A program made the translations under genes and the position numbers. Below, one piece after another: positions 2,276 to 51,880 of a stretch of 64,000 nucleotides of DNA. The first letter of the stretch is position 1, and the number at the start of each line of letters is the position of its first letter. The notes beneath the pieces were generated by a model that worked only from the letters and a program-made list of their open reading frames with translations, ran no database searches and had not been told where the DNA came from. This DNA comes from a virus: the IMG/VR virus record IMGVR_UViG_3300031416_000001. One strand, written 5' to 3'.

Positions 2276-3661
2276 ATGGACACGAAAAAATATAACAGTG
2301 AATTTAAGAAATTCATTAAGAACCATAATCAGCTTTCTGATTTACTCACAGCCGAAGATCTGAAGCGTTATCACGAACTCGACTTTCCTGATAATGTGCA
2401 GATTGTCCATGACGCGCTGCTGGCTAAACTGAAAGAGGACCCTGAGTACGAAGTGTGGGTACCCGTTCGCTACTTCAAGTATCTGCTGCTCAATACCGTC
2501 ACCGGTGTTAAGGAGTTCTATACCAAGTATGCGTTCGTCAGCAACAAGGGTAACTTGTACCACCTTCGCAAGACACCGCAGTTAGACGTCAACGAAGATG
2601 AAGACGAATATCAGCAAAGTGTCGTGCAGCTCACGGATGGGCCCGTTAATTTCTCAGTGAACCGTGCTGTAGCAACCAGCTTCGTGCCGCTACCCAAAGA
2701 CCTCAAAGCCTACGGGTACTACGCGCTTGAAGTGAAGCATCTTAATGACCGTAAGGGTGATAATGATTTCCGCAATCTCCAATGGTTCGCGGGTAATCAG
2801 AATGACCAGACCGTGGTCGACGTTCCTAACGTGACACCAACTGTGCGTGAAGACAAGGCTGTGGGTCATACGGTTCAAGTAGCAAGTGACAAGGAAGTGA
2901 ATCTGCTTTCTATTACAAGCAGTTCTGGCAGTCACCCCGAGCAGTACCATATCCGTCCAATCATGCTGGAAGTAATGATTCCCGGTGACTATTACGGCGT
3001 TCGTCTTATTCGCTCTACACCGAAAGAGCTGGACGATCTCTTAGGTCCAGGGATGTCATCTGCTGCTGAACATGCCGCGAGCATGAACCTTACCGTGTAC
3101 GGTTGTCGCTGGAGCTATGCTACCAACGATGAGATCGCACAGTACGGCGCATTCCGCGTACCGGCCAAGCTGCGTACTCTGTTACATGAGTTTGCTGCGG
3201 GTCACTGCATGAACATCGTGGGGACACGCGTAGCGGACGGACACATGATCCTGATTGAAGGGGATCCATTGGAAACGGAACATCTGGGGTTGAACTACTC
3301 GGATATCCTGAAAGTTTGTGATGGCGAAGAGGAAGTCCACAAGGGCTATACGTTCCGCCGTGTAGATGAGGAAGAGATGTTGCAGGTGCGTACTGCGATT
3401 GATCTCCAAAATACCCTGACCTTCCCCCCGGAGGCGCCGACCGTGAACTTCATCATGGGAAAGCGGATCTCGGATGGACACCTTATTCTGCTTTGCACTG
3501 ATCAGGAGATAGAACTGTTGGGATGGGATCCCAAGACGGTGAATAAGGCTGCACGTAAGAAAGGGTTGCCGGTGTACGGCTATGAGTTCGAACGTATTAC
3601 TGACGACCTCATGGCGCTGAACCTGCGTAACCTGATTGCTACACAGATCACCCAGTTCTAA
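2276..3661 (+). CDS. NUMOD4/HNH_3-type homing-endonuclease-like protein, paralog 2 (HNH distal half missing, three HTH repeats)
   Basis: EVWVPVRYFKYL..YAFVSNKGNLYHLRK. NRAVATSFVP..VKHLNDRKGDNDFRNLQW. Repeated modules GVRLIRS..YGCRWSY, DGHMILIEG..HKGYTFRRV and DGHLILLCT..VYGYEFERI. GGAGAA RBS. Confidence 0.7.
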   Translation: MDTKKYNSEFKKFIKNHNQLSDLLTAEDLKRYHELDFPDNVQIVHDALLAKLKEDPEYEVWVPVRYFKYLLLNTVTGVKEFYTKYAFVSNKGNLYHLRKTPQLDVNEDEDEYQQSVVQLTDGPVNFSVNRAVATSFVPLPKDLKAYGYYALEVKHLNDRKGDNDFRNLQWFAGNQNDQTVVDVPNVTPTVREDKAVGHTVQVASDKEVNLLSITSSSGSHPEQYHIRPIMLEVMIPGDYYGVRLIRSTPKELDDLLGPGMSSAAEHAASMNLTVYGCRWSYATNDEIAQYGAFRVPAKLRTLLHEFAAGHCMNIVGTRVADGHMILIEGDPLETEHLGLNYSDILKVCDGEEEVHKGYTFRRVDEEEMLQVRTAIDLQNTLTFPPEAPTVNFIMGKRISDGHLILLCTDQEIELLGWDPKTVNKAARKKGLPVYGYEFERITDDLMALNLRNLIATQITQF

Positions 3662-3727: not shown

Positions 3728-4792
3728 ATGGGCATTAGAAATACAGTTGACGCGCTCGACAACTTTAAAAGAACACACGATTTGGCAGAGAAGCTATTAA
3801 CGCCTAAAGATCGTTTCATTTATTATACCAAGGACTTTCCAGAAGACGTGGAGTTCCTTTACCCTTTCTTAAAGAAAGCACTGGAGGAGAATCCCGAATT
3901 AGAAGTCTGGGCGCCTTTGTGTTACTTCACTTACGTAGGCACAGGTACAAGTAAGCGCCAAGGATTAACTAAGACACCTTACGCATATATCAGTACCAAG
4001 GGCAACATTTGGCATCTAAGGAAACCAACCAAGGCAGGAGGCGGTAATACTTCAAGCAATGGCTATCAACGATCAAGATTTAGAACGGTTGATGGCGTAG
4101 TTCAATTTGCAATTCATCGTGCTGTAGCCTGTACGTTCATTCCTCTAACAGAAGAACAGAAAGCCATCGGTTACGAAAACCTCCACACCAACCATAAGTC
4201 TACGGATAAACAGGATAATGGTGTGTTGAACTTGGAATGGATGACACATTCTGAGAACGCCCAGCATGGTGTGGATAACAACGCCCGTACTTATCTCAGA
4301 GGCCTTGATCATTACGCTTCTAAGCCGCTCTTAGGCGAGTGCATGATTCCAGGTGAATACGAGGGTGCCAAGTTCCTAATCGCCGGTAAGGAAGCCTTAG
4401 ATGCGCTCACAGACGGTAATGCTCAGTCTTGCCTACAAGCAGCTGACGGTAAGTTCAAACAAGCCAAAGGGTGTAAGTGGAAACACGCTACTGAAGAGGA
4501 TATTGAGGAATACAAAGACTACGTTATTCCTGAAGAGATGGAACAGCTTATCTTCAAGTACAACTCTAACTGGAAACAACCTATCATTGCTACTCGTTTA
4601 ATCGACGGTCATCTTATCCTTATTAAAGGTGGTCCGAAAGAACTGGCGGAACATGGCTTCACCTATCAAACGGTTTACAGTGTTTGTAGTGGGAAGAAGA
4701 GTGCGCATAAAGGTTATACTTTCCGTAGAGCTGAAGATGAGGAAGAAGTTAAAAGGATAGAAGTATTAATCGCTAAGCAGAATAAGAAGTAA
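3728..4792 (+). CDS. NUMOD4/HNH_3-type homing endonuclease, paralog 3 (complete HNH motif)
   Basis: EVWAPL..YAYISTKGNIWHLRK. HRAVACTFIP..TNHKSTDKQDNGVLNLEWMTHSENAQHG (full H-N-N-H, nt 4193-4267). Two NUMOD1-like repeats (..AKGCKWKHAT and DGHLILIKGG..HKGYTFRRA). Confidence 0.75.
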   Translation: MGIRNTVDALDNFKRTHDLAEKLLTPKDRFIYYTKDFPEDVEFLYPFLKKALEENPELEVWAPLCYFTYVGTGTSKRQGLTKTPYAYISTKGNIWHLRKPTKAGGGNTSSNGYQRSRFRTVDGVVQFAIHRAVACTFIPLTEEQKAIGYENLHTNHKSTDKQDNGVLNLEWMTHSENAQHGVDNNARTYLRGLDHYASKPLLGECMIPGEYEGAKFLIAGKEALDALTDGNAQSCLQAADGKFKQAKGCKWKHATEEDIEEYKDYVIPEEMEQLIFKYNSNWKQPIIATRLIDGHLILIKGGPKELAEHGFTYQTVYSVCSGKKSAHKGYTFRRAEDEEEVKRIEVLIAKQNKK

Positions 4793-4839: not shown

Positions 4840-6138
4840 TTATCTAAAGGCCTGATCCCAGGCCACTGCGGAGTTTGATGTTCCGGATATGTGTGATGAC
4901 TTCATCCTCAAAAGCATAAACACAGTAGCTGTACGAGACACCGCAGCAGGCAGACGGGTTGCACTGGCACCCAAACCCTTACCGGCACACGTCTTACAGT
5001 AGTCGCCCTCTGGCGTTAAGCAGAACTGCATTGACCGTACAGGAACGACCTTGCCTTCATACTTATTCCAGTTGTCCTTGGTGATCATGACGTCTTTGCC
5101 GTTATCAATGGTAAAGCAACCCAGCCACAGTTTCTTGTTAGCAGGGTACATCATGACCATCTCGCCGACTTTAACGCCACAGTTATCTTGGACAACACGT
5201 TTGGAACCCATGATGCGCAGGATGTCTTTAACCCTTGCACCACCCTCACCGGTGGCCTTACCACGGTTGTACGCGCCTTCGATCGCCGTGTTGATGTAGT
5301 CCACCATGTGACGTGGGTCCCAACCTTTGGTCAATGGATCAACCAATGGCACCCAGGTATTGGTTTCAGAGTTATACTCGATACCAAACATAATGAACAT
5401 ACGTTTACGACAGTTACTGACGTAGCTCTTGTCGATGTAGAACGTAGCTGACTCACCTTTCATCTGGATTTCATAATCCAGGTTAACACACTGCTCAACG
5501 ATGTCGTTAAACACCAGAGGATCAGACAGGCGGTCTTTGTTCTCTTTCAACAGGCGGTTCTTGAGATCCACCACTTCTTTACTGACAGTCAGCGCATCCT
5601 TAGACCCACACTTCACGATCGCGTAGAGAATGCCTTCTAGGAAGTTAGCGTTCTTGGAGATCTTCAGTACGTCACGTACCGGCGCCTTACCTTCGGGAAC
5701 CGTTTCCCCTTCGGCTGGGTCATCCACCATGATGTCAGCAATAAAGTCACGGATCAGGCCAGGAGTGAGTTCACGGTTCTGATAAGGAATGACTTCACCC
5801 ACGGCTTCCCAGAACATCACTACGTTAAACAGGAAGATACCAAAGGTCGTGGTCATCGCTTCGCCACGTAATGCGGCGTGGAAGTCCCCTGGCATATCGA
5901 TAGTGTCTGCCATGGTAAACACAGGCTCTAACACATCACCTTCTAACGTATGCTCCACACCTTCGTGGTCATGGAACTTAAAGGTTTCCCCCTCAATCCA
6001 CACCGCATAGGGCCACTTAGATAAAATCGCCTTGGACTCTGCATCTTCGAACCCAATGGTACAAACTGACAGCATCCACTCTTTACGTTTATACGCACGG
6101 TGAGCGAACGCGGCTTTTAAGAATTCAAACTTAGTCAC
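4840..6138 (-). CDS. RNA polymerase beta-prime-like subunit fragment (region E/F bridge helix through trigger-loop helix 1), 432 aa
   Basis: TTFGIFLFN resembles E. coli RpoC [54 protein letters not shown] resembles [96 protein letters not shown] resembles [46 protein letters not shown]. No DFDGD motif is present. Confidence 0.75.
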   Translation of the reverse strand: [432 protein letters not shown]

Positions 6139-36651: not shown

Positions 36652-38205
36652 TTATGCCGCTATGTCGAAGTCATCTTCTCCCGGTACTGAATCACCAAAG
36701 TCATTAAGACGATGAGTAATCTTCTTACGACACATCGGTTTGCCTTCGATATCATGAACCAGACCAAGTACAGGATCCAGATCGTAAATACCGAATGAGA
36801 ACGCAGGGTCACCCGCATCACCACGAATCTTACCGATTGCGTAAGTGAAGTAGTTACCTGTTGAGGTCTTGGCAACGTGAATGGTAATTTCCGCATCCAC
36901 TTCGTTCGTTAACTTAGTGGAGGTTTCTGTCATCGACTTACCTGCTACCATCTGAGCAAAGTAAATCTCACTGTCATCATCCGATTCCCTCAGCAATCGT
37001 TTTGCGTCCGGGTTAAGCTGATGTGGTGTATTGAAACAAATACCACGAGCAGAAGTAAACGCGCGCGCCTTACGCAGCAAGATTTGTAGTCGGTCAGATT
37101 TGCTGTCACCCACGATACCGTCGAGTTCCATCATCGCCAAGTAGTCGTAGACATACATGATGATTTCGTGACCGCGCATTTCAAGCTTGCGAATACGTGC
37201 ACAGAAGTTAGCGTAGTTATCTTTGTTCGGCTCAATCTGGTTAAAGATGAAGTACCAGCCGTTTTCGATAAACGCTTCGGTGATAGTTTTGTAGATCTCT
37301 TCTGATGTGACTTCTTCAAACGGTCGCAGCTTACCAGTCTTCGCCACACAGATGAGTTTGTACATGCGGTTAAGAATAAGTTCGATACCGTCTTCTGCTG
37401 AATCCAAGACGATGGTCGGAATCTTACTCTTGTTACGCAGCATCGGTGTTGCTTTATTATACAGGCCAGTGGATGCAATCGCGTGACCCATCATGAGAGA
37501 CTTACCACGGTTTGTCAGGGCGTTCCACAAATAAGTCTTGCCGCGACGTAAACCTTGGTCAGGACCCAAGCCTCTGTTAATTCCCTGGATACCTAACTTG
37601 ATGATACCATCACCGTTCTGCTCACGCTGAGCACGCTCAATGATTTCAATGAAGGGGTCTTTGTCATCAGAGGAAACTGAATCAACCACTTCACTTTGTT
37701 TCTCTTCGTTATACGCCTGGTTGATCTTGCCCTGAATGACGTCCATGAATTCCACCCAGTCGTTCTTTTGGAACTGGCGGAGTTCTTTAAAGTGGAAGTC
37801 CTTGATTTTCTTTTTCAGCGCATCATTGATTTTGGAAGTTTCTTGTTCTTTCTTTATTTCGTCGATGTGCTTGTAGATGATCTGACGCGTACGCTCAGTT
37901 GTTGGATAATCCTCTAACCCAACTTCCATCAGATCTTTCAGCTCAGGCGCTTCTTTAACAAACGAATATACCCGCTGCATAAGCATTGATTTTATGATCG
38001 CTTCATCGTCCGGTTGTTCTAAGATCCAGTCGATGGTCGAGCGAATTGCGCTGTCGATCTTGCGATCTTGGACAAACACATCCGTGTTGGGGGTTTTTAA
38101 CGTTCCGAGAACATCGGTCAACTCATTTAACAATCCGCGGTCTTTTAACTTCTTTGCATGATAAAAGCAAGTGAGGACTTTTACCAACATTAACAGATGA
38201 CCCAT
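36652..38205 (-). CDS. DnaB-family replicative helicase, 517 aa
   Basis: GLRRGKTYLWNALTNRGKSLMMGH (Walker A), IIMYVYDYLAMM (Walker B, DYLQLM-like) and FNTPHQLNPDAKR (SQLNR-like motif). Confidence 0.8.
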   Translation of the reverse strand: MGHLLMLVKVLTCFYHAKKLKDRGLLNELTDVLGTLKTPNTDVFVQDRKIDSAIRSTIDWILEQPDDEAIIKSMLMQRVYSFVKEAPELKDLMEVGLEDYPTTERTRQIIYKHIDEIKKEQETSKINDALKKKIKDFHFKELRQFQKNDWVEFMDVIQGKINQAYNEEKQSEVVDSVSSDDKDPFIEIIERAQREQNGDGIIKLGIQGINRGLGPDQGLRRGKTYLWNALTNRGKSLMMGHAIASTGLYNKATPMLRNKSKIPTIVLDSAEDGIELILNRMYKLICVAKTGKLRPFEEVTSEEIYKTITEAFIENGWYFIFNQIEPNKDNYANFCARIRKLEMRGHEIIMYVYDYLAMMELDGIVGDSKSDRLQILLRKARAFTSARGICFNTPHQLNPDAKRLLRESDDDSEIYFAQMVAGKSMTETSTKLTNEVDAEITIHVAKTSTGNYFTYAIGKIRGDAGDPAFSFGIYDLDPVLGLVHDIEGKPMCRKKITHRLNDFGDSVPGEDDFDIAA

Positions 38206-38879: not shown

Positions 38880-41141
38880 ATGGCTTTTAAAGACGTCAAA
38901 GCTGGAGTTCGCAACACCGGCAACCTTATTAATCAGGCAATCGCCCTGACCAAAAACACAAGCTTCGCCGCGCTGAGCGGATGCGAGTCTTTCGACGATG
39001 CCAAGACCCAACTCGGTCAGATCTTCAACGGCGAAGGCAACAGCACCTTTCAGAAAGGCATGGTAGCAACTCTGTCCCAGGGCGGCTTCGACGCGGCTAA
39101 AGCAGCGATCGGTCGTACTGACGTTGACAAAATCGCGGCAAGCACCTATACTCAGGACGTGCTGAACGACATCTCTCGTCGTCAGGGTCTTGAATCTTTC
39201 ACCCTGGCACAGTTCCCGGGCCAGAGCATGGAAACCAAAGCGGTTAACATCGTTCTGAACACCCAGACTCGCCTGCAGACCAAAGCTGCTGAAGAGCTGT
39301 ACAAAACCATCTCCGTGCGTTACGAAGATGAAGGTGTGAAACTGACTGTTCGTGCGGCTGGCGTAGGTTCTTACGTTTCCGGTGCTTCTGCATGGGAAAG
39401 CATGACCGAACTGACTCCGATCTTCGGTATCCTGCGTAACGGTGATATCTTCCGTGACGACGTTCTGCGCGTATGGCCGGTTCTGCCTGCTGACGAGAAC
39501 GACGAAAACGCACAGCTGTTCATCGACGCAGACATCAAAGCGCCGGTTGACCAAGCTTACCCTACTGGTGATGCATATGGTCGTCAAGAGCACCTGACTC
39601 AGATGCTGGCTGTCCCAGGCGTTGTTAACAACCTGCTGGGCCTCTGCACCGCTCCTGGTCAGCGTCCATGGACTGATACTGATGATATCGAATCAGCATC
39701 TATCCGTATTCTGGAACTGGGCTTCACCGGTAAACTGAACGGCACTGCCATCCAGGCATTCGTTCCTACCGAGTCAATGACCAACATCAACATGTCTCCG
39801 ACCTCTGTTGGCCAGAACTCGAACGACCGTGATCTCGACATCACTCTGCGTCATCTGCCAGTAACTGCGCTGGTTGGCGGCGACAACAAACCGCTCGACG
39901 TTAAAACCGTCTTCAAAGCGTACTACGACAAAGGCTTCGAGCCGAACCTGTCTGTGCGTATGACTGCGCGTTACAACCGTCAGAGCTACCGCCTGGAGCT
40001 GACCACTGGTACTGTTACCATTGAGTCACTGACCGATCTGAACGACGGTAACAAGCGCGTAACTCACAGCGGCGCAACTGCTGAGCAGAAAGCTCTGCTG
40101 CAGGGTCTGAAAGGTGGTGTGGTTAACGCCGCAACTCCAAGCATGAACCTGACCAACGCCTCAAACGGCAACTTCGGTTACCGTCTGGAAGTGTTTGACA
40201 CCAGCAAAGAACTGACCACTCGTCGTCAGGATCCGATCTCTGTCAAATACCCAGTGCGTCCTGAAGACGTGAACAAAGAAGCACTGGACGATGCTGTTAG
40301 CTACATGGGTGTTACCATCCAGACTAACTGCTCGAAGAAAGCCTTCGAAACCGCGTACAAACATCTGGAATACCTCACCTCTATCGATGGTGCGCCAGTT
40401 GTTGATAACGAAAACGGTGGTAACGATCTGCCAGGTCGCATGTACGTTAAAGCGTCTACTGTGCACCGTTCGTTCCGCATTCAGGATCACATCAGTTCTC
40501 CTGATAACGTTGACGTGTTCACTAACGTGTGTTCACTGCTGCTGACTGAAATCCAGGACATCACTGCTGCTCTGGCGTTCAAATCTGGTATCGCTGCCAT
40601 CAACGAGTACTCTGGTATCGCTAAGACCAAATGGTCTGTGATCGTTCACCAGAACCTCGAGCGTTTCCTGATGCGTTCTGGCGACGCGCGTATCACTGCG
40701 TCCGAAGACTTCAACATCGTTGCGACCAACTTCGACAGCATGATCGGTAAGATCTTGATCGTTCCTCAGAACGACTCAACTGAAGACCGCATCAACCCGC
40801 TGGGTGGTATCGGTGTCAACGTTGCTAAAGAGAACGTTGTACTGCACGGTAACGTGACTCGTGGCAACCAGGACTTCGGTGTCATGATGACCATGCCTTG
40901 CTACCTGCACTGGAACCTGAACGTCATCGTTGGATCTCTGATCATCGAAGACGCGAAAGACTTCCTGGGCGATGCTGGCGTGTTCTTCAAACTGGGCGGC
41001 GTTAAAGTTAGCTCTGCTCCAGGCACTGCTGTCAACACCACTGGCGGCGCGGCTTCTGATCAACCTACCGAAGTGAAGATCGTCAATGACGCTCAATCTC
41101 CGGTGATCACCAAAGACGTCACCCCAGCCTCGGGAAACTGA
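38880..41141 (+). CDS. major capsid protein candidate (phiKZ-type, 753 aa)
   Basis: Extreme preferred-codon bias, the strongest in the window together with 25554. The size matches the ~750-aa capsid proteins of phiKZ-like phages. N-terminal GCESF, GLESF and SME motifs fit the S/A/G-x-E prohead-protease sites. Own promoter motif and terminator. Confidence 0.65.
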   Translation: MAFKDVKAGVRNTGNLINQAIALTKNTSFAALSGCESFDDAKTQLGQIFNGEGNSTFQKGMVATLSQGGFDAAKAAIGRTDVDKIAASTYTQDVLNDISRRQGLESFTLAQFPGQSMETKAVNIVLNTQTRLQTKAAEELYKTISVRYEDEGVKLTVRAAGVGSYVSGASAWESMTELTPIFGILRNGDIFRDDVLRVWPVLPADENDENAQLFIDADIKAPVDQAYPTGDAYGRQEHLTQMLAVPGVVNNLLGLCTAPGQRPWTDTDDIESASIRILELGFTGKLNGTAIQAFVPTESMTNINMSPTSVGQNSNDRDLDITLRHLPVTALVGGDNKPLDVKTVFKAYYDKGFEPNLSVRMTARYNRQSYRLELTTGTVTIESLTDLNDGNKRVTHSGATAEQKALLQGLKGGVVNAATPSMNLTNASNGNFGYRLEVFDTSKELTTRRQDPISVKYPVRPEDVNKEALDDAVSYMGVTIQTNCSKKAFETAYKHLEYLTSIDGAPVVDNENGGNDLPGRMYVKASTVHRSFRIQDHISSPDNVDVFTNVCSLLLTEIQDITAALAFKSGIAAINEYSGIAKTKWSVIVHQNLERFLMRSGDARITASEDFNIVATNFDSMIGKILIVPQNDSTEDRINPLGGIGVNVAKENVVLHGNVTRGNQDFGVMMTMPCYLHWNLNVIVGSLIIEDAKDFLGDAGVFFKLGGVKVSSAPGTAVNTTGGAASDQPTEVKIVNDAQSPVITKDVTPASGN

Positions 41142-41227: not shown

Positions 41228-41264
41228 AATACTACTCCCGCCCGGAAGGGTTGGGAGTAGTATT
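41228..41264 (+). terminator. long hairpin terminator
   Basis: AATACTACTCCC..GGAA..GGGAGTAGTATT (12-bp outer stem plus inner pairs), followed by a T-rich tract. Confidence 0.75.
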
Positions 41265-41271
41265 ATTTATG
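41265..41271 (+). promoter_or_regulatory. ATTTATG variant of the TTTTATG motif
   Basis: Directly after the terminator and 90 nt upstream of ATG 41361. Confidence 0.3.
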
Positions 41272-41360
41272 TTTGCCATTTATTTTTCAGACCTACATTA
41301 TTAGACAGTATACACTCAAAATGATCGACGGATCAGAGAAACAAATAAAGGGCCCTGAAC

Positions 41361-42368
41361 ATGAGATGTTTTAATTTAGATTACAAGATATTCAATCCTA
41401 AGCGCATTCCTCTGCAGATTCGTCACAAGGGGGGAATTAGTTATGAACTCCACGACAACTGGGACGACTCAGGTGAACGTGTTTACATTGAGTTTCGGTT
41501 TAACAACGTCAACATCAAAAAACTGCGAGTCAATCCTGATGAGGCATTAACAAATTTCGATCGAGCCGTGATGAAGCAGTTGAAGTCACGTATTGACGAT
41601 TTGGTTAAGGCACATCCCCACGATGAGTTAATGCTGCAGAACCAAGACATCTTCTTTATTGTTTATATCACCAATAATGAGATCAGTCGGAAGAATGCGG
41701 TACACAGTGAGATGTTGGGCTTCACTCTTTACCTGGGCAAGTTCGAGCGTGAAGTACATGCGCTCAATACGCCCAGCGAGGCGTTAGATAACATTGTCGA
41801 TACAGCCAATGCCGATAACAGTGTCAACGCATCCATTAAGTTAATTGACCCGGAGAACCGTTATGGGAATCTGTGGACAAACGTTTTTGGTCGTGCGGTA
41901 AAGGTGGATGCAGTGAGGGTACCAGACCAAACGCCAGGTCTGTACTTGTTTTGTGAGGGCGAGGACGTTGACGGGATTCAGGTTTACTATCCCTTTGACG
42001 AGATTGATAATAAAATACTACAGCAATATGGTATATTCATGAGTGAACAAGAGGCACTATTAGGAGGCAACACCGACGAGCTGCTCCGTACTCGCAAGAG
42101 TGTGGACAACCTCAAGAAAGAGAATCGTGACCTTATGACAATGTTGGGAACTCAACGTCTTAGCATTGGTGAGCTGATACAAAAAGTGGCAGCCACTACA
42201 AATGAAGTTGCCAGACTTAAGGCCGAAGTGATCAAGAAGGATCTTGAGCAGAAGTTCTTCGATAAGTTGGAGAAAAAGAAGCAAGGCATGGACACGTTGG
42301 GAGGATACGTTAAGAATGCTTCGATTGTTTGTAGCGCGTTGCTGAGTATTTATAAAACAGTGACATGA
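41361..42368 (+). CDS. hypothetical protein, 335 aa, with a C-terminal coiled coil and hydrophobic tail
   Basis: Track ORF. Codon usage is more AT-rich than in neighbouring genes. Heptad-like region ~aa 245-305, then ASIVCSALLSIY. Confidence 0.75.
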   Translation: MRCFNLDYKIFNPKRIPLQIRHKGGISYELHDNWDDSGERVYIEFRFNNVNIKKLRVNPDEALTNFDRAVMKQLKSRIDDLVKAHPHDELMLQNQDIFFIVYITNNEISRKNAVHSEMLGFTLYLGKFEREVHALNTPSEALDNIVDTANADNSVNASIKLIDPENRYGNLWTNVFGRAVKVDAVRVPDQTPGLYLFCEGEDVDGIQVYYPFDEIDNKILQQYGIFMSEQEALLGGNTDELLRTRKSVDNLKKENRDLMTMLGTQRLSIGELIQKVAATTNEVARLKAEVIKKDLEQKFFDKLEKKKQGMDTLGGYVKNASIVCSALLSIYKTVT

Positions 42369-42384
42369 CACAAATGGAGGGTTG

Positions 42385-44064
42385 ATGCAACCGAAACTGG
42401 TAGAGGCAGTTGATGCCACAATGCCGAAGTTCAACAAGTCAATTGTTGAAGGGTTCCATCTCCGAGAGTTTGAGGGCGGATATCGTTATCTTAACTATAT
42501 CTATCGATTAATCTTTAAAGATGTTGAAAAGAAAGGCGTGATCTTTGAGGGCATCAGTCGCATGAAGCCCAAGGAATATATTGCATTCCTTCGCGGTCGT
42601 CAACCCAAGGTTTATGACACGCACAAAGAGAGCTACTACCCTGTCACCATCAATTTCTCCTGGCGCGATCCCAAGACCGGTGAAACTAAACCGTTCCCGC
42701 CAATCGTAACGATGCTGTTGTACTGCGATCGTTATGGCGATGTGTGGATCCGCGATAGTCAGTATTCGTTACAAATGGTCATGGCTGAACGTGGCCTGAG
42801 CGTAACGAAAGAAAAGTCTATCTTCTTTAAGGTATTGAGCTTCAAGACAAAGATCGGTGCGGAATTCTTCCGTTTTGATAAAGTGCATACGGAGCTGAGC
42901 AATCTGCCCCGTTCGACCATTGACTTGAACTTAGCCGCCAACCGTTTCTATAGCCCGAGTGAATCCCGTGCGATTACCAGTAAGAAAACCCCGTTCCCTC
43001 TGTTGAGCTGGTATATCTTTGGTAACTTCGGTTTCAGTGAGGCCATGCGTCTTTATGGCGAATGCGAATATGAAATTGGGCCGGTTGAAATATTGACTAA
43101 ACGTTGTCTTCCAAAAGATCGCTGGGAGATATTTACGCGTAGTGGCAGTTCCAACAACAAGTACCTGGGTGACTTTATCCCGCTGGAGTTGGGCATTGCG
43201 TTGCGTAATAAAAACGAGAAGCGCAAAGAGTTATCTAGCATGGGCGTTCAGTATGCTGCCGCACTCTTGTTTGTCATTTCGTGCATGCCGTCTTACTTTG
43301 AGATGGATGACATTGACGATAAGAACTATTGGCGTTTACTGATCGGGCGCTGTTCGGTTAAACCGGGTGACCCGAATGATTATGTGCTCCGTCTAATGGA
43401 CGAGCATTTTGATTCCATGAATGATTTGCTCGAAGAAGATTCCATTCGCAAATTTGCCAGCCAGTCTGTGTACGTGAAAGATATGTTTGAACTCTTCAAC
43501 TATATCATCGCGAACCGCAGTGAGATCGTGCAGACTACCGATCGTGGCAGCGCTCTTAATAAAGAATTGGCAAGCATGGAGTTTACCTTTGATGGTTTGA
43601 GCACACTGGCAAACCAGTTCAAGCACTTCATTAAGAACAACTCTGAACTTAGTTATCAGAAGGTCAAGAACTTCCTCACAAACAGTAGCATTAAGCTTCG
43701 TTCAATCGACAATGCGCGTTTGGCAAATATGATCCTGGAACCGACTCCAACGGATAACCCGTTCTCGGAATACATGCTCGGCGTTATGGCGCAGCACAAG
43801 GTATTTACGGGTAAAAGGAAACAAGCTTCAGGTGACTTTGACGTGCACGACACGGCTAACCTCACTAATGCGTCAATGGCCTTTGTCTTCAGTTATCAAC
43901 GTGTAACCAAACCTGATCCAGATGCTAGAGGCTTCTTAGCCCCTTGTGTGTATACCATTAGTGGTAATCTCACTGGCATCCGAGAGGAGCGGCTTCCGTT
44001 GGCTGGGGCCACGGAGACGCGTTTGAAGATAAGGGAGTCACGGACGTACACTCAACAGGATTAA
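42385..44064 (+). CDS. RNA polymerase beta-like subunit, N-terminal half, ~559 aa
   Basis: [24 protein letters not shown] resembles E. coli RpoB [43 protein letters not shown] resembles [37 protein letters not shown] (nt 43306-) resembles [47 protein letters not shown] resembles NNPLSEITHKRRIS..AGFEVRDVH..RVCPIETPEGPNIGL. No beta C-half motifs are present. Confidence 0.65.
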   Translation: [559 protein letters not shown]

Positions 44065-44067
44065 AGA

Positions 44068-46440
44068 ATGGCACTCGCACCCCGCTATACAGCATCAGTA
44101 CAACCAACTTCAGCACCAACTGGGCCGGGAACCCAGGGCGCTAACACGGCTCCAGGGCAACAGGATGCACTGGGTCTGGTAAAACAGTTGGTTCGTCAAT
44201 CATCACAGGCCGCTAGTTATGATCCTGTGTATAACAACATTTATGAAGACAAAACACTTCAAGAGTTCAAAGAGCAATCTTCAGAAGGCAGTGAAGATCA
44301 GATTAACTATTTCCGTCAGCATGCGGCGGCGTGGATAGTTCAGTTTGTTCAAGAAGCGAAGATCTATCGTCATGGGGTGATGTACGCTACCTTCCGTGAC
44401 ATCGTGGAAAACTATCCTTCTATTCGTGCAGTGAACAGTCATGTCAAAGCTGAGTTCATTAAGTTCTTGGTGGGACGTAATGATTTACTGGACGTAGTTG
44501 CAATTCGAACCTCGGTGTGGTTTGGCTTTATCATGGCGAAAGTGATTAAAGACGCCAATGGCCAGCCGCCTCGTCAAGCTGTACTGCATTCAGTGCGTAC
44601 AGCGACCGAGAACATCTTGAATCTTGAAATTGTTACCTGGCTGAATGGGTCTAACAAAGCAGCGGCTTTCTTGTATTCGCCGACGCCTGAGATCCAGGAG
44701 CTATTGAGCAAGTTCAACATGCGCAAAGATGCAGCATCAAAGGTATTCCAGTTCTTCGAGGAATCCTCGCCGTATGACGCTGCTAACTTCTCTGGTGAAC
44801 GCATGAGTGAAGGTAACATTACCAACATTATGCCAGAGGTTGCGCGTGTGGGCATGGATCAACGCCTGCCTGCCAGCAAGAACAACGGTATGACGGACAT
44901 GACAGGAACTTATGTACCGGATTACCATGATGGCATGGCTGCAGAAGATCGTGAGCTGTTACGGATATCGTTCGATCTGATGCGTAAAAACAATCAGACC
45001 CCGGGCTTTACCAATCAGCCACCACCTCGTGCTACACAACGGGACAGTTATGATGATTTGAATATCTACGGAACGAGCGGTCAGCGTTACCGTACGGATA
45101 TCGAAAACATTGATATCCACAATCGCCACCTGTTTGACCTGCGCAGTTACTTTACAGCAACGGCGTGTGAAAACTGGTGGACAGTAAAAGAGGGAGATTG
45201 GACATTCCTCAAACGTGCTATGAAACGTCGTGGCGGTATTCGTGCTGAAGATACAATCGTTAAAGGCTGTATTCGTTTTGTTGAATATGACTTTGACCAC
45301 GAGAACTCGTTCCCAGGATGGAGAACGCGAGCCATTCGTTTCACCAACCAAGCGGAAAAAGATATGATCTTGTCTGATCCTGCTAAACTGCTGCCTCACC
45401 TGGATGTGGATAGTTTCCAGAACAAGGTTGTGGTATTGCCGGTCACCGAAGCCAAAGCGTTCTTTGATGAAGAAGGTCGCAAGCTGGGTGATGATGCGGA
45501 AGTGTTTGAAAAGCTGCGTGAACCAGGATTTGAATTCCGTGTTATTGATACTGAAGACAGCATCCGCACCAGTTATACCAAGGACGTGTACGATCGCATG
45601 ATTGCTTCCGGGACTTCGATTGCTGAAGAAACACAGAAGCCGTTAGCGATGTTGGGTGAGTTCGACATCACCGGCCGGTTCATGTTCGAAGATCGTCAGT
45701 CTCGTGATGCAGTCGTGGCCAAGTTCCCAATGGTGTTCCATGGTTACGAAGGCAATGCTGACAATTCTTACTTTGGTATCATCGAATCGATTGCGCGTCA
45801 GTTAGGGCGTACACCGATTGATGATGAGAACACGCCGGAAGGCCATCGCTTTGATACATTTGTAAGCGGTCGTCTGACGATGGATCTCAATGACTGGTTG
45901 GTAAATGCAGCGGGTTATTCACTTAATCCCAAAGACGGTGAGTCGCTGACTGTGGACAACATTCTGCTCGATTACAACGAGTTGAAGACTGTGTTGTTGC
46001 AGACGGATAAAACCGTGTATGACATTTTGAATCAGGTTGGCCCTGACAGTTTGGTTAAGTCTCTTATCGAGATGTTTGATCGTCCTGTTACACCTGCTGA
46101 AACAATGTCACCGGTTGATCGCGAAGAGCACGCTATGTCGCTTATTCGCTCTCGCCACTATCGCAGTATTGTGATTCACAACGAACCTGGTCCTAAACCA
46201 ACCGTTGGTAAACCGATCACTCTGCGTCGCAGTAACAACCCCGAGTTCTTTACTCTAATTGACACCTTGCGTGCTCATGTTCAAGGTAAAGGCCAACAGC
46301 TCGAAACACAAAGCATCTTAATGATGTATAAATACACCAATGACCTGTTCATGGTGACGCCGACTGTGTATGATGAAAACGTGTTGACGATCCGTACGGT
46401 GAAACCATCGCGCACATTCCTCAGTCCGGCCTTTGGGTAA
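44068..46440 (+). CDS. RNA polymerase beta-prime-like subunit, N-terminal/catalytic part with a DFDHE loop (tentative), 790 aa
   Basis: Matches to E. coli RpoC are collinear and sit at similar residue numbers. IMPEV (254) resembles LPVLPP (250). [14 protein letters not shown] (297) resembles [30 protein letters not shown] (339) resembles [31 protein letters not shown] resembles LNRAPTLHRLGI. EYDFDHE (aa 408-412, nt 45289-45303) resembles [16 protein letters not shown] resembles [32 protein letters not shown] resembles [25 protein letters not shown]. Confidence 0.5.
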   Translation: [790 protein letters not shown]

Positions 46441-46458
46441 CTCTTAGAAATAACTCCT

Positions 46459-46482
46459 ACTCCTACCCTCGCGGGTAGGAGT
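46459..46482. terminator. bidirectional hairpin terminator
   Basis: ACTCCTACCC-TCGC-GGGTAGGAGT between convergent genes, with a T9 run downstream. Confidence 0.75.
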
Positions 46483-46506
46483 AAGGTTGTTTCTATTTTT
46501 TTTTGT

Positions 46507-49500
46507 TTAAATACCAAACGGGTTCTCACCACCTTCTTTAGTATCAGACAGTTTCTTAGCATCTTCGCTAACTTCAGCGTCTGCCTTGTCTTCTGGCTTC
46601 ACGTCATCAGGATTTTGATTATCGTCTGGCTTCGCTTCATCGTTGTTCTCATCGTCTGGCTTGTTCTCGTCATCCAGATTTTCATCTGTATTTTCAGGGT
46701 TCAAGTCATCTGTCTGAGCGCCATCGTCTGGCGGGGTTGCTCCGTCATCTAATGAAGGTTCATTACCATCACCTTCGGCATTGAACGGACCAGGCTGTTG
46801 TTCGTTTTCATCCTCAGTACCAGCGATAGTCTGGAATTTCTCCAGAGCTTTCTCAAGCTTCGGCTCCATCGATTTAACAGTCTTGCCACGCTCTTCCAGA
46901 TCACGCAGGGCGAGGTTACTCAGGAAGCTGTAGAGTTTATTGTTTTGTAGTACAACGCTCTCCACAATGCCTGCCATGCCGCCACCTGATGGATCATCCA
47001 CTGCATCGTCAAACGGTGAAGGAATGTTGAGGTACTTGTGTGCTTTCTGGTACAGGTAGGCTTTGACCATTGCTTCGATCTGTTCCTTGCTGTACTCACC
47101 ACCGATGTTCAACGTTTCCAACGCTTTATCGATCAGTGCAGTTTTACCGTTGGCATCCCACCACTGTGTCACCAGTTCGTTAACCGTACTCAGACCTTCC
47201 TTGAGCTTCGCCGCCTGTTCCATTACCGCAGGAGCCGGCAGAGAACATTCGATGTTGTTCAGGAAGTCTTCCAGGATAAGTTCAATGGTATCCGCTTCGC
47301 TTCCTTTCGGCATCTCGACTTCTTTATTATCAGGAGTCCAGAGCTTTCTTTGGTCGCTGATAGTTTGGATCAGAGACAACAGCAGAGGTTGGTTAACGCG
47401 CACGTATTTACGTTCACGCTCCATTACGAAGTCCGCAATTTGTTCTTGCCAGTTCAAGGCCTGGTTGTACACCAGTCGGTGTTCATTCAGCGCTTCAATC
47501 TGGAAGTTATTGTTTTCATCCGCAACATCCAACCAGCTACGCGGTAACATGAAGTAGTTGGCGATCTTGTTCAACACTTCGTTACGACTGTCGCTATCTA
47601 CCTTGCGGAAGTGTTGCTTCTCCTGAGGCTCTACAGAGATGTTTGGAACAGGCAAGTAGGGGTTTTCACCTGCATCCACTTCCAACGTCAAGGAGAGTTC
47701 ACGGAAGGCATCGACCAGTACCGGAATACTCATCTGGTTTGTGGCCAGCACGTTATAGAAACGCGGGTTAGCACGGAAGAAGACTTCACGAGCCATTGCA
47801 ATCGTGCGCTCTGGGTTCGGGTCATCTTTGTTCAGCACAATACGCATCTTGTTAGAGCTTTGTGCTGCTTCCATGTTGGCCATGGCGTCTGCCAGATCCA
47901 TTGCCGCTAAACGCGCAATGTGCATCTTGGCTGATTGAGTCAGTGATTGACCCACACCCAATGCATTGTATTTAAACGCCGCATAGGTCACGCATTCACC
48001 TGGTACATACAGAGCACGGATACCTTGACCACGGAACATACGGGCCAGGAAGATCTTGTTGGTTTCCTCATCGAGGTCCACAGAGATCGTACCAGAACGA
48101 CCGGAGATCACTGACTTCATAAAGGATTCAATAATGATCCCTTTACTGAGTTCAGCAAATTCAGTCATGTCGAAGTCACAGTCTTTACCCTGTTGAATCT
48201 GCTTCAGGTTATCGATCAGTGAATTGGTACCGCCCTGCTGGTTCTTGTTACCGATCCCGTCAGAGAGCTTCTTAGAACTCTGGTAATACTGGAAGTCAGT
48301 AACGTTGTTCAGGAACTCGCCGGTATCAGGATCAAACAGAATCACGTAGTCTTTCTTCTTACGCACATTTCCGTTGATATGAATAGGAATGATTGCAGCA
48401 GAAGGAACGTGCCAGTCAATCGGCGTACCGTAGTTAGCCACACCCAGATCAGTGTCTTGCTTAACAAACTGCATGAACTGATTAGCAGCTCGACGATGTG
48501 GGAAGATGTCATGCTGCAAGCTGTTAAGCGTACCCATTGACATGTTCTTAACCGTTGCACGCGGTTTGTCAGGGCGGTTTTCTTTATCGCTGCTCTTCTT
48601 GGTTGTCGTCTTGTCACGGTCATCCGGTTTAGCATTAGCATTGCTCAACGTCTGCTGGATAAGAGACGCAAAGTCTTCATTACCCGAATAGAACTTCTCG
48701 TTGAACTTCTTCTTCTTTTCAGCCAGCAGGTTAGTTGCCAGCGTAGCCGGGTTATCCGTAAAGGTGATATTGAAAGCAGAACCTTCCAATGGTGTGCCTT
48801 TAAGAATGTCGAACTCCGCCTGACTGGATGTTTTCACATTCTGCATGGAACCCATAACAGATTCCAGACCCGCCACGTTAAAGACATCATCGCCTTTATC
48901 TTCCGGTGGACGCACGTAGTTGCCCACGTTCATCACACGCATTTTACCGGTTGAGCGGTCAAAGGTGAAGTTACCCTGGGTGGCCTGGTAGGTATGAATT
49001 GGCTTCATATCCTCGTTACCAGCACGGTCCACGACTTCCATACCGTTGATTAAATAATCGAGAGAGATACGGCTCAGGGTCAATGTGGCATAGCTACCGG
49101 TGTTCCAGAGCATGTCATCGATCTGTTCGCGCAGTTCGTCTTCGATTTTATAGTCGTTTGTAAAGTAATCTTTCCAAACCTTTAATAATGCGGTATGCAA
49201 CGGCGTATTTTTGTAACGAGATGACCGCGTCGAGTATTCCAGGATATTTTTCTGTTTCCCGTTGGGATACAGCAGTAGCGAAGACCAGATCAATTCAGCA
49301 CGGTCGATATAGGGCGTAATCGCACGCAAGTCATGCGCGGCATTAATGTTGTTGGCAATGATGTTGCTTATGCGTTCGAGCTTGTGCGGCATGATCGCAT
49401 TACGCTCATTTCCCGCGGTGAGTTCGTTTGCTTCCGGTGCACGCCCGTTCTTTGGTACAGCATTGCGAAGCGTTGCTGCGACCAGTGGGTTTACCGACTT

Positions 49501-49569
49501 AACTTTCTCTCGTAAGCGAGAGAGATTCGCAGTCGTACTACCTCTGGTCATATCTCGACTTTGGACCAT
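46507..49569 (-). CDS. portal protein candidate, ~1020 aa (start moved to ATG 49569)
   Basis: Very large ORF next to the capsid/RNAP late cluster. ATG 49569 has a GAGGC RBS 5 nt upstream. ~107-aa acidic low-complexity C-terminus. Contains AGLESV. No diagnostic motif, so the call is by size and context. Confidence 0.45.
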   Translation of the reverse strand: MVQSRDMTRGSTTANLSRLREKVKSVNPLVAATLRNAVPKNGRAPEANELTAGNERNAIMPHKLERISNIIANNINAAHDLRAITPYIDRAELIWSSLLLYPNGKQKNILEYSTRSSRYKNTPLHTALLKVWKDYFTNDYKIEDELREQIDDMLWNTGSYATLTLSRISLDYLINGMEVVDRAGNEDMKPIHTYQATQGNFTFDRSTGKMRVMNVGNYVRPPEDKGDDVFNVAGLESVMGSMQNVKTSSQAEFDILKGTPLEGSAFNITFTDNPATLATNLLAEKKKKFNEKFYSGNEDFASLIQQTLSNANAKPDDRDKTTTKKSSDKENRPDKPRATVKNMSMGTLNSLQHDIFPHRRAANQFMQFVKQDTDLGVANYGTPIDWHVPSAAIIPIHINGNVRKKKDYVILFDPDTGEFLNNVTDFQYYQSSKKLSDGIGNKNQQGGTNSLIDNLKQIQQGKDCDFDMTEFAELSKGIIIESFMKSVISGRSGTISVDLDEETNKIFLARMFRGQGIRALYVPGECVTYAAFKYNALGVGQSLTQSAKMHIARLAAMDLADAMANMEAAQSSNKMRIVLNKDDPNPERTIAMAREVFFRANPRFYNVLATNQMSIPVLVDAFRELSLTLEVDAGENPYLPVPNISVEPQEKQHFRKVDSDSRNEVLNKIANYFMLPRSWLDVADENNNFQIEALNEHRLVYNQALNWQEQIADFVMERERKYVRVNQPLLLSLIQTISDQRKLWTPDNKEVEMPKGSEADTIELILEDFLNNIECSLPAPAVMEQAAKLKEGLSTVNELVTQWWDANGKTALIDKALETLNIGGEYSKEQIEAMVKAYLYQKAHKYLNIPSPFDDAVDDPSGGGMAGIVESVVLQNNKLYSFLSNLALRDLEERGKTVKSMEPKLEKALEKFQTIAGTEDENEQQPGPFNAEGDGNEPSLDDGATPPDDGAQTDDLNPENTDENLDDENKPDDENNDEAKPDDNQNPDDVKPEDKADAEVSEDAKKLSDTKEGGENPFGI

Positions 49570-49594
49570 TATTAGCCTCTTTTTTGGAAACAAA

Positions 49595-51880
49595 ATGAAT
49601 AGAATAGATCTCGATAATTTCTATTCCGACACTTTCCAACTCACCCGCACAATGGTTGTCAAAATAGAAGCCATTGCGCAGCGCGAGAATGAAGTGTTGG
49701 AAAAGGCCGGATACACCGTTCTTAATGACAAGCGCACGTGGCGCTATTACATGAATTTAAACGGAGATTACCACGAGACTGATGAAGTCATGACGGTGAT
49801 TTCCTTGGACACAGGTGAAGAGATACCCTTTACCAAAGAGACGATGGCTCAGCATCTTCTCACCTACCGTCAGTATCTTAAGGGCGGTGACCTGTACAAG
49901 CGTCTTACGGACACCTATGACGGACAGACCGTTTTAATCAACGGCATACTGTTACCGATTACATATGATGTTTCGATCGATGCCCCGAACTATAAGATTC
50001 TTCGCTACAATGAGAGTCTTGTCCTGTGGAATGAAGAACAGCTGATTCCTCAGGTCCAACGCTGGATAAACGGTAACGCCCCGGCGATGTTCGAAAACGA
50101 ATACCACGTCACTGAAGATCTCATGCTTCACCAGATGGTGGTTGAGTTGGGCGCGGCTATTCTTCAGGTTATTCACTTAACCCGTTTCCAAGCCATCAAG
50201 ACCCGTAACGCCCATGACTTCTATATCTGGAGTCATATCGATTCATACGGTGAGTTCTCGGTCTATAAGAACTCGCTGAACCGTGAACAGGTAATGTGGT
50301 TACACCGCAATATCGAATGGATCAACAGTAACGCGGGTAAAGAGTTTACGTTCGATAAGCTCATGGAGAAACTACTGACTTTGCGTAAGATCCCGATCTC
50401 GAAATATGAGATGGTGTTGAACACAGAGAACCAATTGGTAGACCTCACTCCAACGCCTCAGTGGAAGCGTACGCAGCTGAATATGAATGAGGATAAGCAG
50501 ATACTGCCTGTCTTCTTCAACACGCAGAAGCTCATTGAGAAAGAACGTCCGATGGCGGTGGACAACACCCTGATGACCTCCATCTATCAGGAAGAAGCAA
50601 ACTTCGAAGGCACGTACAGTTTACACAATGACTTGCCGACCAAGGTGCTGGAATCTGAGATGGCGGACTACACCAACCGTCACAGCGATACCATGATGAC
50701 CGTGGTGTTTAACCAGTGGATCTACCTGGCAGGTAAAGGTGTCTATCAGGTTAACATGGCGGTAGTGAATCCCAAAGACGGACGTTTGTTACGTCTGGAT
50801 GCCAAGGATGCGTTTACCTTGTGGCGCTACATTACTCGCCTTGCCGCGGGTCATGAACTCACCACTATTGAGAATGCCTTCTATAATAACGTCATGGCTC
50901 TGAAACCACCTACGGTAAAAGAGTTGCAAAACGTTGGGCTGGGAAGCAAGTACATTACTGATGCTGTTGCAGGTAGTATCCGCGACCAGTTCGTTGATAT
51001 CGTGTCGGTGGGTTCATCTGAAGAGTTGTTGAATGTTTCCAAGAACATCTATATTGCGATGTGGAAGCACAAGAAGCTGTACAGTTCTTTCGGGGATCAC
51101 GTCACGCATGCGGCGGTTAAGAATGCCACTAAGCTGATGTATGAAACCGGTGAGATCTCATTGGTAGACGACCACAGCTACCTGCGCTTCTTGCAGAAGT
51201 ATGCGCTGGACTTCGATGACTACAACTACGAAGAACTCACCAATCTGGCTTGGGTCATCTTTAAAACCTTTACCGGTTGGGATCTCAACAACAACCCATC
51301 ACTTCGCAGCATTCAGAATGATTTGATTGATCTCATGATGAAGCTGAGTTCCTATACCGTTCACACCATTAAAACCATGGATGACGGTACGGACGTGATT
51401 GAGTTGCCGTACGACAACAGTCTGGGGGATTCACAATATCTGGGTCTGGGTCATCAGTTAGAAGCCGATTTCTCCAATGTCCACTTAAAACTGAATCACG
51501 CCCTGGCGTTAGATGCGGTACCGGAGTTGGAAGTCCGCTTACCGGATACCAACCATCCTAAGCTTGACAGTGCCTCGGCTACGGTTAAAGCACGCTTTGT
51601 TGATACCACTCGCATGCGTTTGGATCACAGCAAAGACATCACTCCGCTCAATGCATTGCGCTTCCCTAACAGTAACTTCTTTACGGTTGAAACGGGAAGT
51701 ACGCCGCACCCTGACTTCATTCTTCCTCCGACCTATTATGGGGAACTTGAAGAACAGGATGAACCAGAAGACCTGATTATTCCGCCAACGTTCTACGGTG
51801 AGTTAGGTGAACCGGTAGAGCCAGAGTGGTTGCTTCTTGATCCGACGTATTACGGTTTGTTGGGAACTGAATCAAAATGA
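49595..51880 (+). CDS. hypothetical virion-type protein, 761 aa (track ORF trimmed to ATG 49595)
   Basis: The track N-terminal extension overlaps the divergent portal-like gene. MNRIDLDNFY start. C-terminal triple PPTYYGEL repeat. Confidence 0.75.
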   Translation: MNRIDLDNFYSDTFQLTRTMVVKIEAIAQRENEVLEKAGYTVLNDKRTWRYYMNLNGDYHETDEVMTVISLDTGEEIPFTKETMAQHLLTYRQYLKGGDLYKRLTDTYDGQTVLINGILLPITYDVSIDAPNYKILRYNESLVLWNEEQLIPQVQRWINGNAPAMFENEYHVTEDLMLHQMVVELGAAILQVIHLTRFQAIKTRNAHDFYIWSHIDSYGEFSVYKNSLNREQVMWLHRNIEWINSNAGKEFTFDKLMEKLLTLRKIPISKYEMVLNTENQLVDLTPTPQWKRTQLNMNEDKQILPVFFNTQKLIEKERPMAVDNTLMTSIYQEEANFEGTYSLHNDLPTKVLESEMADYTNRHSDTMMTVVFNQWIYLAGKGVYQVNMAVVNPKDGRLLRLDAKDAFTLWRYITRLAAGHELTTIENAFYNNVMALKPPTVKELQNVGLGSKYITDAVAGSIRDQFVDIVSVGSSEELLNVSKNIYIAMWKHKKLYSSFGDHVTHAAVKNATKLMYETGEISLVDDHSYLRFLQKYALDFDDYNYEELTNLAWVIFKTFTGWDLNNNPSLRSIQNDLIDLMMKLSSYTVHTIKTMDDGTDVIELPYDNSLGDSQYLGLGHQLEADFSNVHLKLNHALALDAVPELEVRLPDTNHPKLDSASATVKARFVDTTRMRLDHSKDITPLNALRFPNSNFFTVETGSTPHPDFILPPTYYGELEEQDEPEDLIIPPTFYGELGEPVEPEWLLLDPTYYGLLGTESK
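51713..51877 (+). repeat. three tandem ~19-aa coding repeats: (hydrophobic)3-PPT[YF]YGEL-acidic
   Basis: FILPPTYYGELEEQDEPED / LIIPPTFYGELGEPVEPEW / LLLDPTYYGLLGTESK at the extreme C-terminus. Confidence 0.8.

Follow-up and report, generated by a model that had tools for sequence, protein, structure and literature searches.

A non-virion RNA polymerase beta-N gene and a probable, highly diverged JADA gene in an uncultured phiKZ/EL-like jumbo phage

The non-virion RNA polymerase (nvRNAP) of phage phiKZ consists of five polypeptides, and gp124 is not among them (PMC4666361). The N-terminal half of its beta subunit (beta-N) is gp123, which carries the beta-lobe and, under that lobe, a pocket that binds the TATG of late promoters on the non-template strand (PMC12809450). 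The double-psi beta-barrel (DPBB) of beta, together with the flap and a15, is located in gp71-73, and the bridge helix of such split phage RNA polymerases (RNAPs) resides in the C-terminal half of beta-prime (phiKZ gp74), not in its N-terminal half (PMC8287921). A second protein, JADA, is encoded directly downstream of an nvRNAP subunit gene and on the same strand, an arrangement published as an invariant of JADA loci (PMC12931631). Here we describe a pair of adjacent genes in IMG/VR virus record IMGVR_UViG_3300031416_000001, which was analyzed as a stretch of 64,000 nucleotides (the window). The upstream gene encodes a 559-aa beta-N subunit of the non-virion type, and the downstream gene encodes a 790-aa protein that is very probably a diverged member of the JADA family.

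JADA was described as gp316 of phage Pa36 and is the orthologue of phiKZ_124; it is essential, expressed early and abundant, and it is found mainly in Chimalliviridae, with "few conserved residues" among its members (PMC12931631). The protein has an N-terminal domain (residues 1 to 170), a long flexible linker and a dimerizing C-terminal domain (270 to 721) of novel fold, and its published model has a predicted template modeling score (pTM) of 0.53 (PMC12931631). It is found at the early-infection vesicle, and Avs5 Sir2-STAND receptors sense the dimer that its C-terminal domain forms (PMC12931631).

An nvRNAP beta-N subunit and its JADA-like neighbor

The upstream open reading frame (ORF; positions 42385 to 44064, + strand) begins at an ATG four bases past a GGAGG and encodes a protein that is the orthologue of phiKZ gp123 and EL gp80, the lobe-bearing beta-N subunit of the non-virion RNAP. 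It matched phrog_2943, annotated "polymerase" (2e-132), and, by phmmer, PHIKZ123 (7OGP_E, chain E of the phiKZ non-virion RNAP; 1.7e-12). Identity was 58% to the RisingSun protein, 53% to EL gp80 and 22% to phiKZ gp123, and homologues were present in 215 jumbo-phage records by tblastn. An AlphaFold2 (AF2) model built with 50 homologues (predicted local distance difference test [pLDDT] 84.5, pTM 0.80) matched 67 RNAP chains in Foldseek. The best of these was the phiKZ nvRNAP chain 9rjs_E (E = 2e-26, TM 0.74/0.84) and the second was the AR9 nvRNAP beta-N chain 7s00_c (TM 0.64/0.73), followed by bacterial beta and Pol II Rpb2 chains with partial coverage of the target (TMt ~0.2-0.25). The fold is that of the N-terminal half of beta, with lobe and protrusion; the protein ends at 559 aa and has no catalytic DPBB half.

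A preliminary description of this stretch, made from the sequence alone, had already called this protein beta(N)-like and noted that the catalytic half is missing, which our results support. The description had relied on matches to E. coli RpoB, and these were not recovered: Pfam returned nothing relevant for the 559-aa protein, its pairwise similarity to RpoB was at chance level, and hhalign of its family against E. coli RpoB gave no match. The homology to beta-N instead rests on phmmer, fold and synteny. W316, D457, P459 and F485, which lie within the segments that had been compared with RpoB, are invariant across the family, and the proposed motif equivalences themselves (DDID, NPxSE and GxFxV) are neither validated nor refuted by sequence. 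The description had also assigned the subunit to a virion-packaged enzyme; subunits of the gp123 type are part of the non-virion RNAP, which is made from early genes.

The downstream ORF (44068 to 46440, + strand) encodes the 790-aa protein, which we read as a rapidly diverging orthologue of JADA and thus as the counterpart of Pa36 gp316, phiKZ gp124 and EL gp81. Our confidence in this reading, taken jointly with the identity of the beta-N subunit, is high. The AF2 model of the protein, built from a 67-sequence alignment (pLDDT 79.5, pTM 0.48, 408 residues at 90 or above), contains a helical N-terminal domain (~75-235), a disordered linker (244-338, with pLDDT below 50 over 244-270 and 308-338) and an alpha/beta C-terminal region (~340-790). 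As in JADA/gp124, the N terminus holds a low-complexity region rich in Q, P and G. When the model was searched against the PDB with Foldseek, the sole match at E ≤ 0.001 was 9rp3_B, the "Avast type 5 activator (Gp316, JADA jumbophage protein)" (E = 1.8e-7, probability 1.00, 455 aligned columns), and all 20 significant matches in BFVD were uncharacterized jumbo-phage proteins of similar length. Profile-profile comparison by hhalign of the 790-aa family with an 11-member phiKZ gp124-family profile gave a probability of 93.6% (E = 2e-7) over 150 collinear C-terminal columns, and the same family profile matched the single phiKZ gp124 sequence weakly and in the matching register (E = 0.0016 to 6e-4). 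Finally, a beta-N gene followed on the same strand by a JADA-like gene is found in the window, in EL, in phiKZ and in two uncultured metagenomic contigs (L008 and L009). Fold, profile, architecture and synteny therefore agree in identifying the 790-aa protein as a diverged JADA orthologue.

Several observations weigh against this identification and would fit the idea that an unrelated, clade-specific protein has displaced gp124 at this locus, the weak matches being convergent or partial. The sequence link to gp124 spans just ~150 C-terminal columns at 13% identity, and hmmsearch and phmmer comparisons of the 790-aa family with the single phiKZ gp124 sequence were nonsignificant. The Foldseek match to 9RP3 has a target-normalized TM of 0.43, a root mean square deviation of 12.7 Å and 10% identity, and the N-terminal domain is unresolved in 9RP3, so the fold match covers JADA's C-terminal domain. 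PHROGs places the protein in a family of its own (phrog_13213, 3.6e-79) whose function is unassigned there, and at E < 1e-5 tblastn found it in just 31 phage records, none of them phiKZ-like. We nevertheless consider displacement improbable. Convergence would have to account for a Foldseek match at probability 1.00 to the only significant PDB entry and for the hhalign probability given above. It would also have to account for the shared length class, Q/P/G-rich N terminus, two domains and disordered linker, and for a locus and orientation identical in EL, phiKZ and the metagenomic relatives. The weak sequence signal has a simpler explanation, because JADA has few conserved residues and the 790-aa protein is among the fastest diverging of its block. 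Its identity to the EL protein, like that of the product of the ORF upstream of beta-N (the counterpart of EL gp79), is 24-25%, whereas the helicase, major capsid protein (MCP), beta-N, DNA polymerase and virion-RNAP (vRNAP) subunit share 43-54% with their EL counterparts. Relative to L008, the JADA-like and gp79-like proteins share 47% and 35%, respectively, and the others 59-82%. The genes flanking beta-N thus diverge about twice as fast as their neighbors, a pattern that, for the JADA-like protein, would fit pressure to evade immunity.

The DFDHE pentapeptide and the rejected beta-prime reading

The preliminary description had proposed a different identity for the 790-aa protein, namely, a beta-prime(N)-like subunit collinear with RpoC, with a magnesium-binding loop reading DFDHE, that would form part of a virion-packaged RNAP together with beta-N. 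Both ORFs are present as described, and all of the quoted peptide strings were found in the two translations. The short strings do occur in roughly collinear order, DFDHE does sit in a loop between two predicted beta-strands, and the gene does adjoin that of a genuine RNAP subunit. Profile searches and structure prediction, which the description had itself recommended, were carried out and found no RNAP. Pfam gave no RNA_pol_Rpb1 match at E ≤ 1 for the 790-aa protein; no family reached threshold and none was RNAP related. By BLASTP, the best alignment to E. coli RpoC had an E value of 1.1 and was off-register, and the pairing proposed for "region B" corresponded to just a ~16-bit high-scoring segment pair (E ~15). 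The Smith-Waterman score against RpoC fell below the mean of 150 shuffles (z = -0.8), 124 of which scored at least as high as the real protein. In hhalign, the 790-aa family matched phiKZ gp55 and RpoC with a probability of 0.3-0.4%. PDB sequences searched by phmmer with the single protein and by hmmsearch with a 67-member profile yielded noise only. An exhaustive HMMER profile search of 1.84e9 representative proteins with the family recovered 72 proteins, nearly all of 750 to 890 aa, with no RNAP among them. No RNAP chain was found by Foldseek in the PDB or BFVD with the 790-aa model, whereas the neighboring 559-aa protein, which served as a positive control, retrieved its 67 chains.

The segment that had been likened to a bridge helix is the best-conserved helix of the 790-aa family (N608, W610, G616 and Y617) and forms part of the block that aligns to phiKZ gp124. 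It is thus a conserved helix of the JADA family and, as noted above, the bridge helix of such phages belongs to the C-terminal half of beta-prime. A resemblance of the N-terminal helical domain to terpene synthases or nuclear-receptor ligand-binding domains (Pfam E = 0.0015, below the curated cutoff; Foldseek E > 0.1) was weighed and dismissed as noise generic to helical bundles.

The codons of D408-F-D410-H-E412 (GAC TTT GAC CAC GAG) lie at 45289 to 45303 (+ strand), where they had been reported, and in the AF2 model the loop is flanked by predicted beta-strands 401-406 and 418-424. The string is real, and the catalytic role assigned to it is not supported, as its acidic residues are not conserved. 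Across the 67 homologues, position 408 is D in 51 and N in 12, position 410 is D in 21, and position 412 is a gap in 49, so that E412 sits in a clade-specific insertion. The lack of conservation extends to close relatives: nine homologues of 42-99% identity read DFDHE, DFEHE, NFDNE, DFSDE, DFDDE or NLTNE. Strings of this kind also arise by chance, with DFDx[D/E] appearing in 3% and DxDx[D/E] in 41% of shuffles of the 790-aa protein. Judged from the sequences of the family, DFDHE is a chance, clade-specific loop and not a catalytic motif. A sequencing error converting GD to HE was considered and rejected; three nucleotides would have to be wrong, and H-E or other non-GD residues stand at this place in independent assemblies.

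The canonical loop itself could be located in related phages. An all-frame scan found ADFDGD in exon 2 of phiKZ gp55, past the gp56 HNH gene, and VDFDGD in EL gp26, downstream of gp24/gp25; EL thus holds a beta-prime-N with the DFDGD loop besides gp81, its homologue of the 790-aa protein. In each of the two RefSeq records, the loop (L005:10544-10558 in phiKZ and L006:31083-31097 in EL) falls outside the coding sequence (CDS) annotated as an RNAP subunit, and in EL it lies in gp26, a 93-aa "hypothetical protein." A search of the annotated CDSs of phiKZ gp55 and EL gp24 for DFDGD was empty because intron-like HNH/endonuclease insertions break up both genes, and the position of the loop downstream of the inserted endonuclease-like gene indicates that the annotated beta-prime-N CDSs (phiKZ gp55, 420 aa; EL gp24) are truncated exons. 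No D[FYW]DGD was found in any frame of the window. The beta-prime-N genes of this phage lie outside the window, and its canonical motif is inferred from relatives.

The absence of any profile or structural match to RpoC and the lack of conservation of DFDHE speak against a beta-prime subunit on the preliminary description's own terms. In addition, gp124 is absent from the five polypeptides of the purified phiKZ nvRNAP (PMC4666361), and subunits of the gp123 type, to which its neighbor belongs, are components of the non-virion enzyme. We regard a beta-prime(N) identity for the 790-aa protein as next to impossible. A catalytic loop of the form D-x-D-x-E would have made this a remarkable multisubunit RNAP, but that reading is refuted.

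A three-gene unit in the phiKZ/EL gene order

The window belongs to an uncultured phiKZ/EL-like jumbo phage that is related to Pseudomonas phage EL and to Erwinia phage RisingSun, and the surrounding genes confirm the phiKZ-like assignment made earlier. The order in the window is helicase (- strand), a small ORF, MCP, an ORF of ~350 aa, the "polymerase" and an ORF of ~750 aa, and this order is identical in EL (gp76-gp81) and phiKZ (gp118-gp124). Collinearity with EL runs from gp44 onward. A megablast search with the 6-kb region found no match among 50,697 phage records, indicating that cultured phages are no more than distant relatives of this one. Specifically, a divergent DnaB-like helicase gene (36652 to 38205, - strand) is followed by the gene for the phiKZ-type MCP (38880 to 41141; PF25620, 4.5e-116), and the other end of the region is bounded by a phiKZ gp129-like gene of 1028 aa (46507 to 49593, - strand), next to which lies a gp128-like gene. 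The ORF pair, which had been placed between capsid-like and portal-like genes, lies between the phiKZ-type MCP gene and the opposite-strand gp129-like gene. We conclude with high confidence, shared between the beta-N and JADA identifications, that this locus represents, in a new, diverged lineage, the "gp122-gp123-gp124" module that is conserved among phiKZ-like (Chimalliviridae-type) jumbo phages.

The first gene of the module is a 335-aa ORF (41361 to 42368, + strand), the counterpart of EL gp79 and the positional counterpart of phiKZ gp122. It matched phrog_27591 (3.6e-29) and EL gp79 (25% identity, E = 9e-22 by BLASTP), and there was no BLASTP match to phiKZ gp122. Upstream of it, a hairpin (TACTACTCCC...GGGAGTAGTA) with a T-rich tail (41230 to 41270, + strand), read directly from the sequence, ends the MCP transcript, and EL has an equivalent hairpin in the same position behind its own MCP gene, gp78. 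After an AT-rich stretch comes ACCTACATTAT (41291 to 41301, + strand), a candidate phage promoter of the three-gene unit. The EL record annotates a "putative phage promoter" (atattttaaacctacatta) in the orthologous position, and the motif in the window is identical to the core of that promoter. This correspondence is suggestive only; with at most two mismatches, ACCTACATTAT is not enriched across the window (13 matches versus 13.4 expected), and we claim no promoter class. The layout that follows the MCP gene, with hairpin terminator, AT-rich stretch and ACCTACATTAT, is common to the window (41230-41301) and EL (L001:5809-5889) and is kept despite the lack of DNA-level similarity between them elsewhere. 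At the other end, a terminator scan identified a bidirectional GC-rich hairpin of 11 to 13 pairs (46456 to 46485, both strands) between the convergent JADA-like and gp129-like genes. The 335-aa ORF, beta-N and JADA-like genes thus form a compact same-strand block with the MCP hairpin before it and the bidirectional terminator after it. Within the block, the back-to-back TAA-N3-ATG junction that had been reported is TAA(44062-44064)-AGA-ATG(44068), and its 3-nt gap suggests that the beta-N and JADA-like genes are probably translationally coupled.

This organization also bears on whether the 790-aa protein might be a late protein of the virion or of head assembly, which its location, with the MCP gene to one side and a gp129-like virion gene to the other, could imply. 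We find this very improbable. The gene lies in a separate, terminator-bounded unit that it shares with an nvRNAP gene, and no structural-protein PHROG or fold match was obtained for its product. In phiKZ, the record labels the neighbors structural and does not so label gp123 or gp124, and the orthologue is expressed early and is abundant at 10 min. For the same reason, the late capsid operon to which the pair had been assigned does not include it; the three genes are a unit of their own.

The window also encodes a vRNAP-type subunit of 432 aa (4840 to 6138, - strand), which matched phrog_2962, "RNA polymerase beta subunit" (1e-125), and shares 46% identity with EL gp44 and 24% with phiKZ gp80, a protein that the phiKZ record labels "structural head protein"; no PDB sequence matched it. 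Adjoining this gene are two tandem HNH-endonuclease genes (2276 to 3661 and 3728 to 4792, both + strand; phrog_17657, phrog_59 and phrog_959), whose N-terminal HNH regions are paralogous. Similar endonuclease insertions split RNAP genes in phiKZ (gp56 and gp72) and EL (gp25).

Two features of the gp129-like and gp128-like genes may be recorded. The gp129-like protein ends in a long, acidic, low-complexity tail (DDGATPPDDGAQTDDLNPENTDENLDDENKPDDENNDEAKPDDNQNPDDVKPEDKADAE...) encoded by the C-terminal ~80 codons of the 1028-aa gene (46507 to 46750, - strand), and this tail is the cause of the strong negative AT and GC skew at 46 to 48 kb. The adjoining ORF, called by program as 844 aa (49346 to 51880, + strand), begins within the divergent 1028-aa gene. 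Alignments to PHROG and phiKZ gp128 start at the ATG at 49592 (MNRIDLDNF...), and the true gp128-like gene is probably 49592 to 51880 (762 aa); this ATG overlaps the last two bases of the start region of the 1028-aa gene on the opposite strand.

Proposed role and comparison with known systems

By analogy with phiKZ, the 559-aa beta-N would join subunits of the gp55, gp68, gp71-73 and gp74 types in an nvRNAP that transcribes late genes, supplying the beta-lobe and protrusion, while the catalytic half of beta, both halves of beta-prime and a sigma-like subunit would be encoded elsewhere, outside the window. The gp122-gp123-gp124-type block would be expressed early, as in phiKZ and Pa36, with the beta-N and JADA-like genes cotranscribed. 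The timing, transcriptional role, dimerization and Avs5 sensing that we propose for the JADA-like protein are taken from the literature on these two phages. On that basis, its product would act early, at or near the early-infection vesicle, would be needed for normal phage transcription and, as JADA is, for efficient phage replication, and would be the pattern sensed by bacterial Avs5 (Sir2-STAND) receptors. In phiKZ, phage transcription at 30 min is strongly perturbed once gp122 or gp124 has been depleted, depletion of phiKZ_124 impairs propagation, and the antisense screen lists gp124 as "non-core" (PMC12571901). Two points temper this part of the interpretation: the mode of action proposed for the JADA-like protein is an inference, and the gp122/gp124 antisense phenotypes could in part be polar effects on gp123, a caveat of our own.

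JADA is not a stoichiometric nvRNAP subunit (PMC4666361). More speculatively, the JADA-like protein, and perhaps also the gp122-like protein, might work directly with the cotranslated beta-N as a transient assembly, import or promoter-switch factor in the transition from vesicle to nucleus; in that case the three genes would make up a functional transcription unit, and Avs5 would detect the one that evolves fast. We consider this possible though rather doubtful. In a minor variant of the same idea, the acidic loop of D408, D410 and E412 would be a clade-specific metal or ligand site.

If the 790-aa protein is a JADA orthologue, as we think very probable, then a "hypothetical" gene of EL-, RisingSun- and Miami-type jumbo phages (phrog_13213) becomes assignable to the JADA/gp124 family, and this would support a spread of JADA across nucleus-forming phages that is broader than sequence clustering implies. 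JADA-like proteins trigger Avs5 immunity against jumbo phages, and such diverged copies would be natural material for probing the range of Avs5 recognition.

Comparison of the two proteins with their closest described relatives summarizes what is shared and what differs. Against phiKZ gp123 (chain E of PDB entries 7OGP, 7OGR, 8QUE and 9RJS), the 559-aa protein has the same fold and nearly the same length (559 versus 543 aa), occupies the same locus after the helicase, MCP and gp122-like genes, and likewise stops ahead of the catalytic half of beta. Its sequence, however, is highly diverged, no Pfam model detects it, and its promoter specificity may differ. Further relatives are EL gp80, the RisingSun "RNAP subunit" and the AR9 nvRNAP beta-N chain (7S00_c). 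With the N-terminal halves of beta-prime (phiKZ gp55 of the nvRNAP, gp178 of the vRNAP and RpoC), the 790-aa protein shares only its genomic association with an RNAP gene and an acidic pentapeptide between two beta-strands, and it lacks a conserved NADFDGD loop, a detected DPBB/RNAP fold and profile similarity. The true beta-prime-N genes of its relatives instead adjoin the chimallin gene and carry DFDGD (phiKZ gp55 exon 2; EL gp24/gp26). The 790-aa protein differs from JADA in being ~70 residues longer and in being similar by profile-profile comparison only, with PHROGs setting phrog_13213 apart. Like JADA, it is built of an N-terminal domain that a long disordered linker joins to a larger C-terminal domain, is of similar size, has few conserved residues, evolves fast and matches gp124 by family profile. 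The gp123-gp124 gene pair is known and the locus is an ordinary one; what is new here is a diverged member of that pair in a new lineage.

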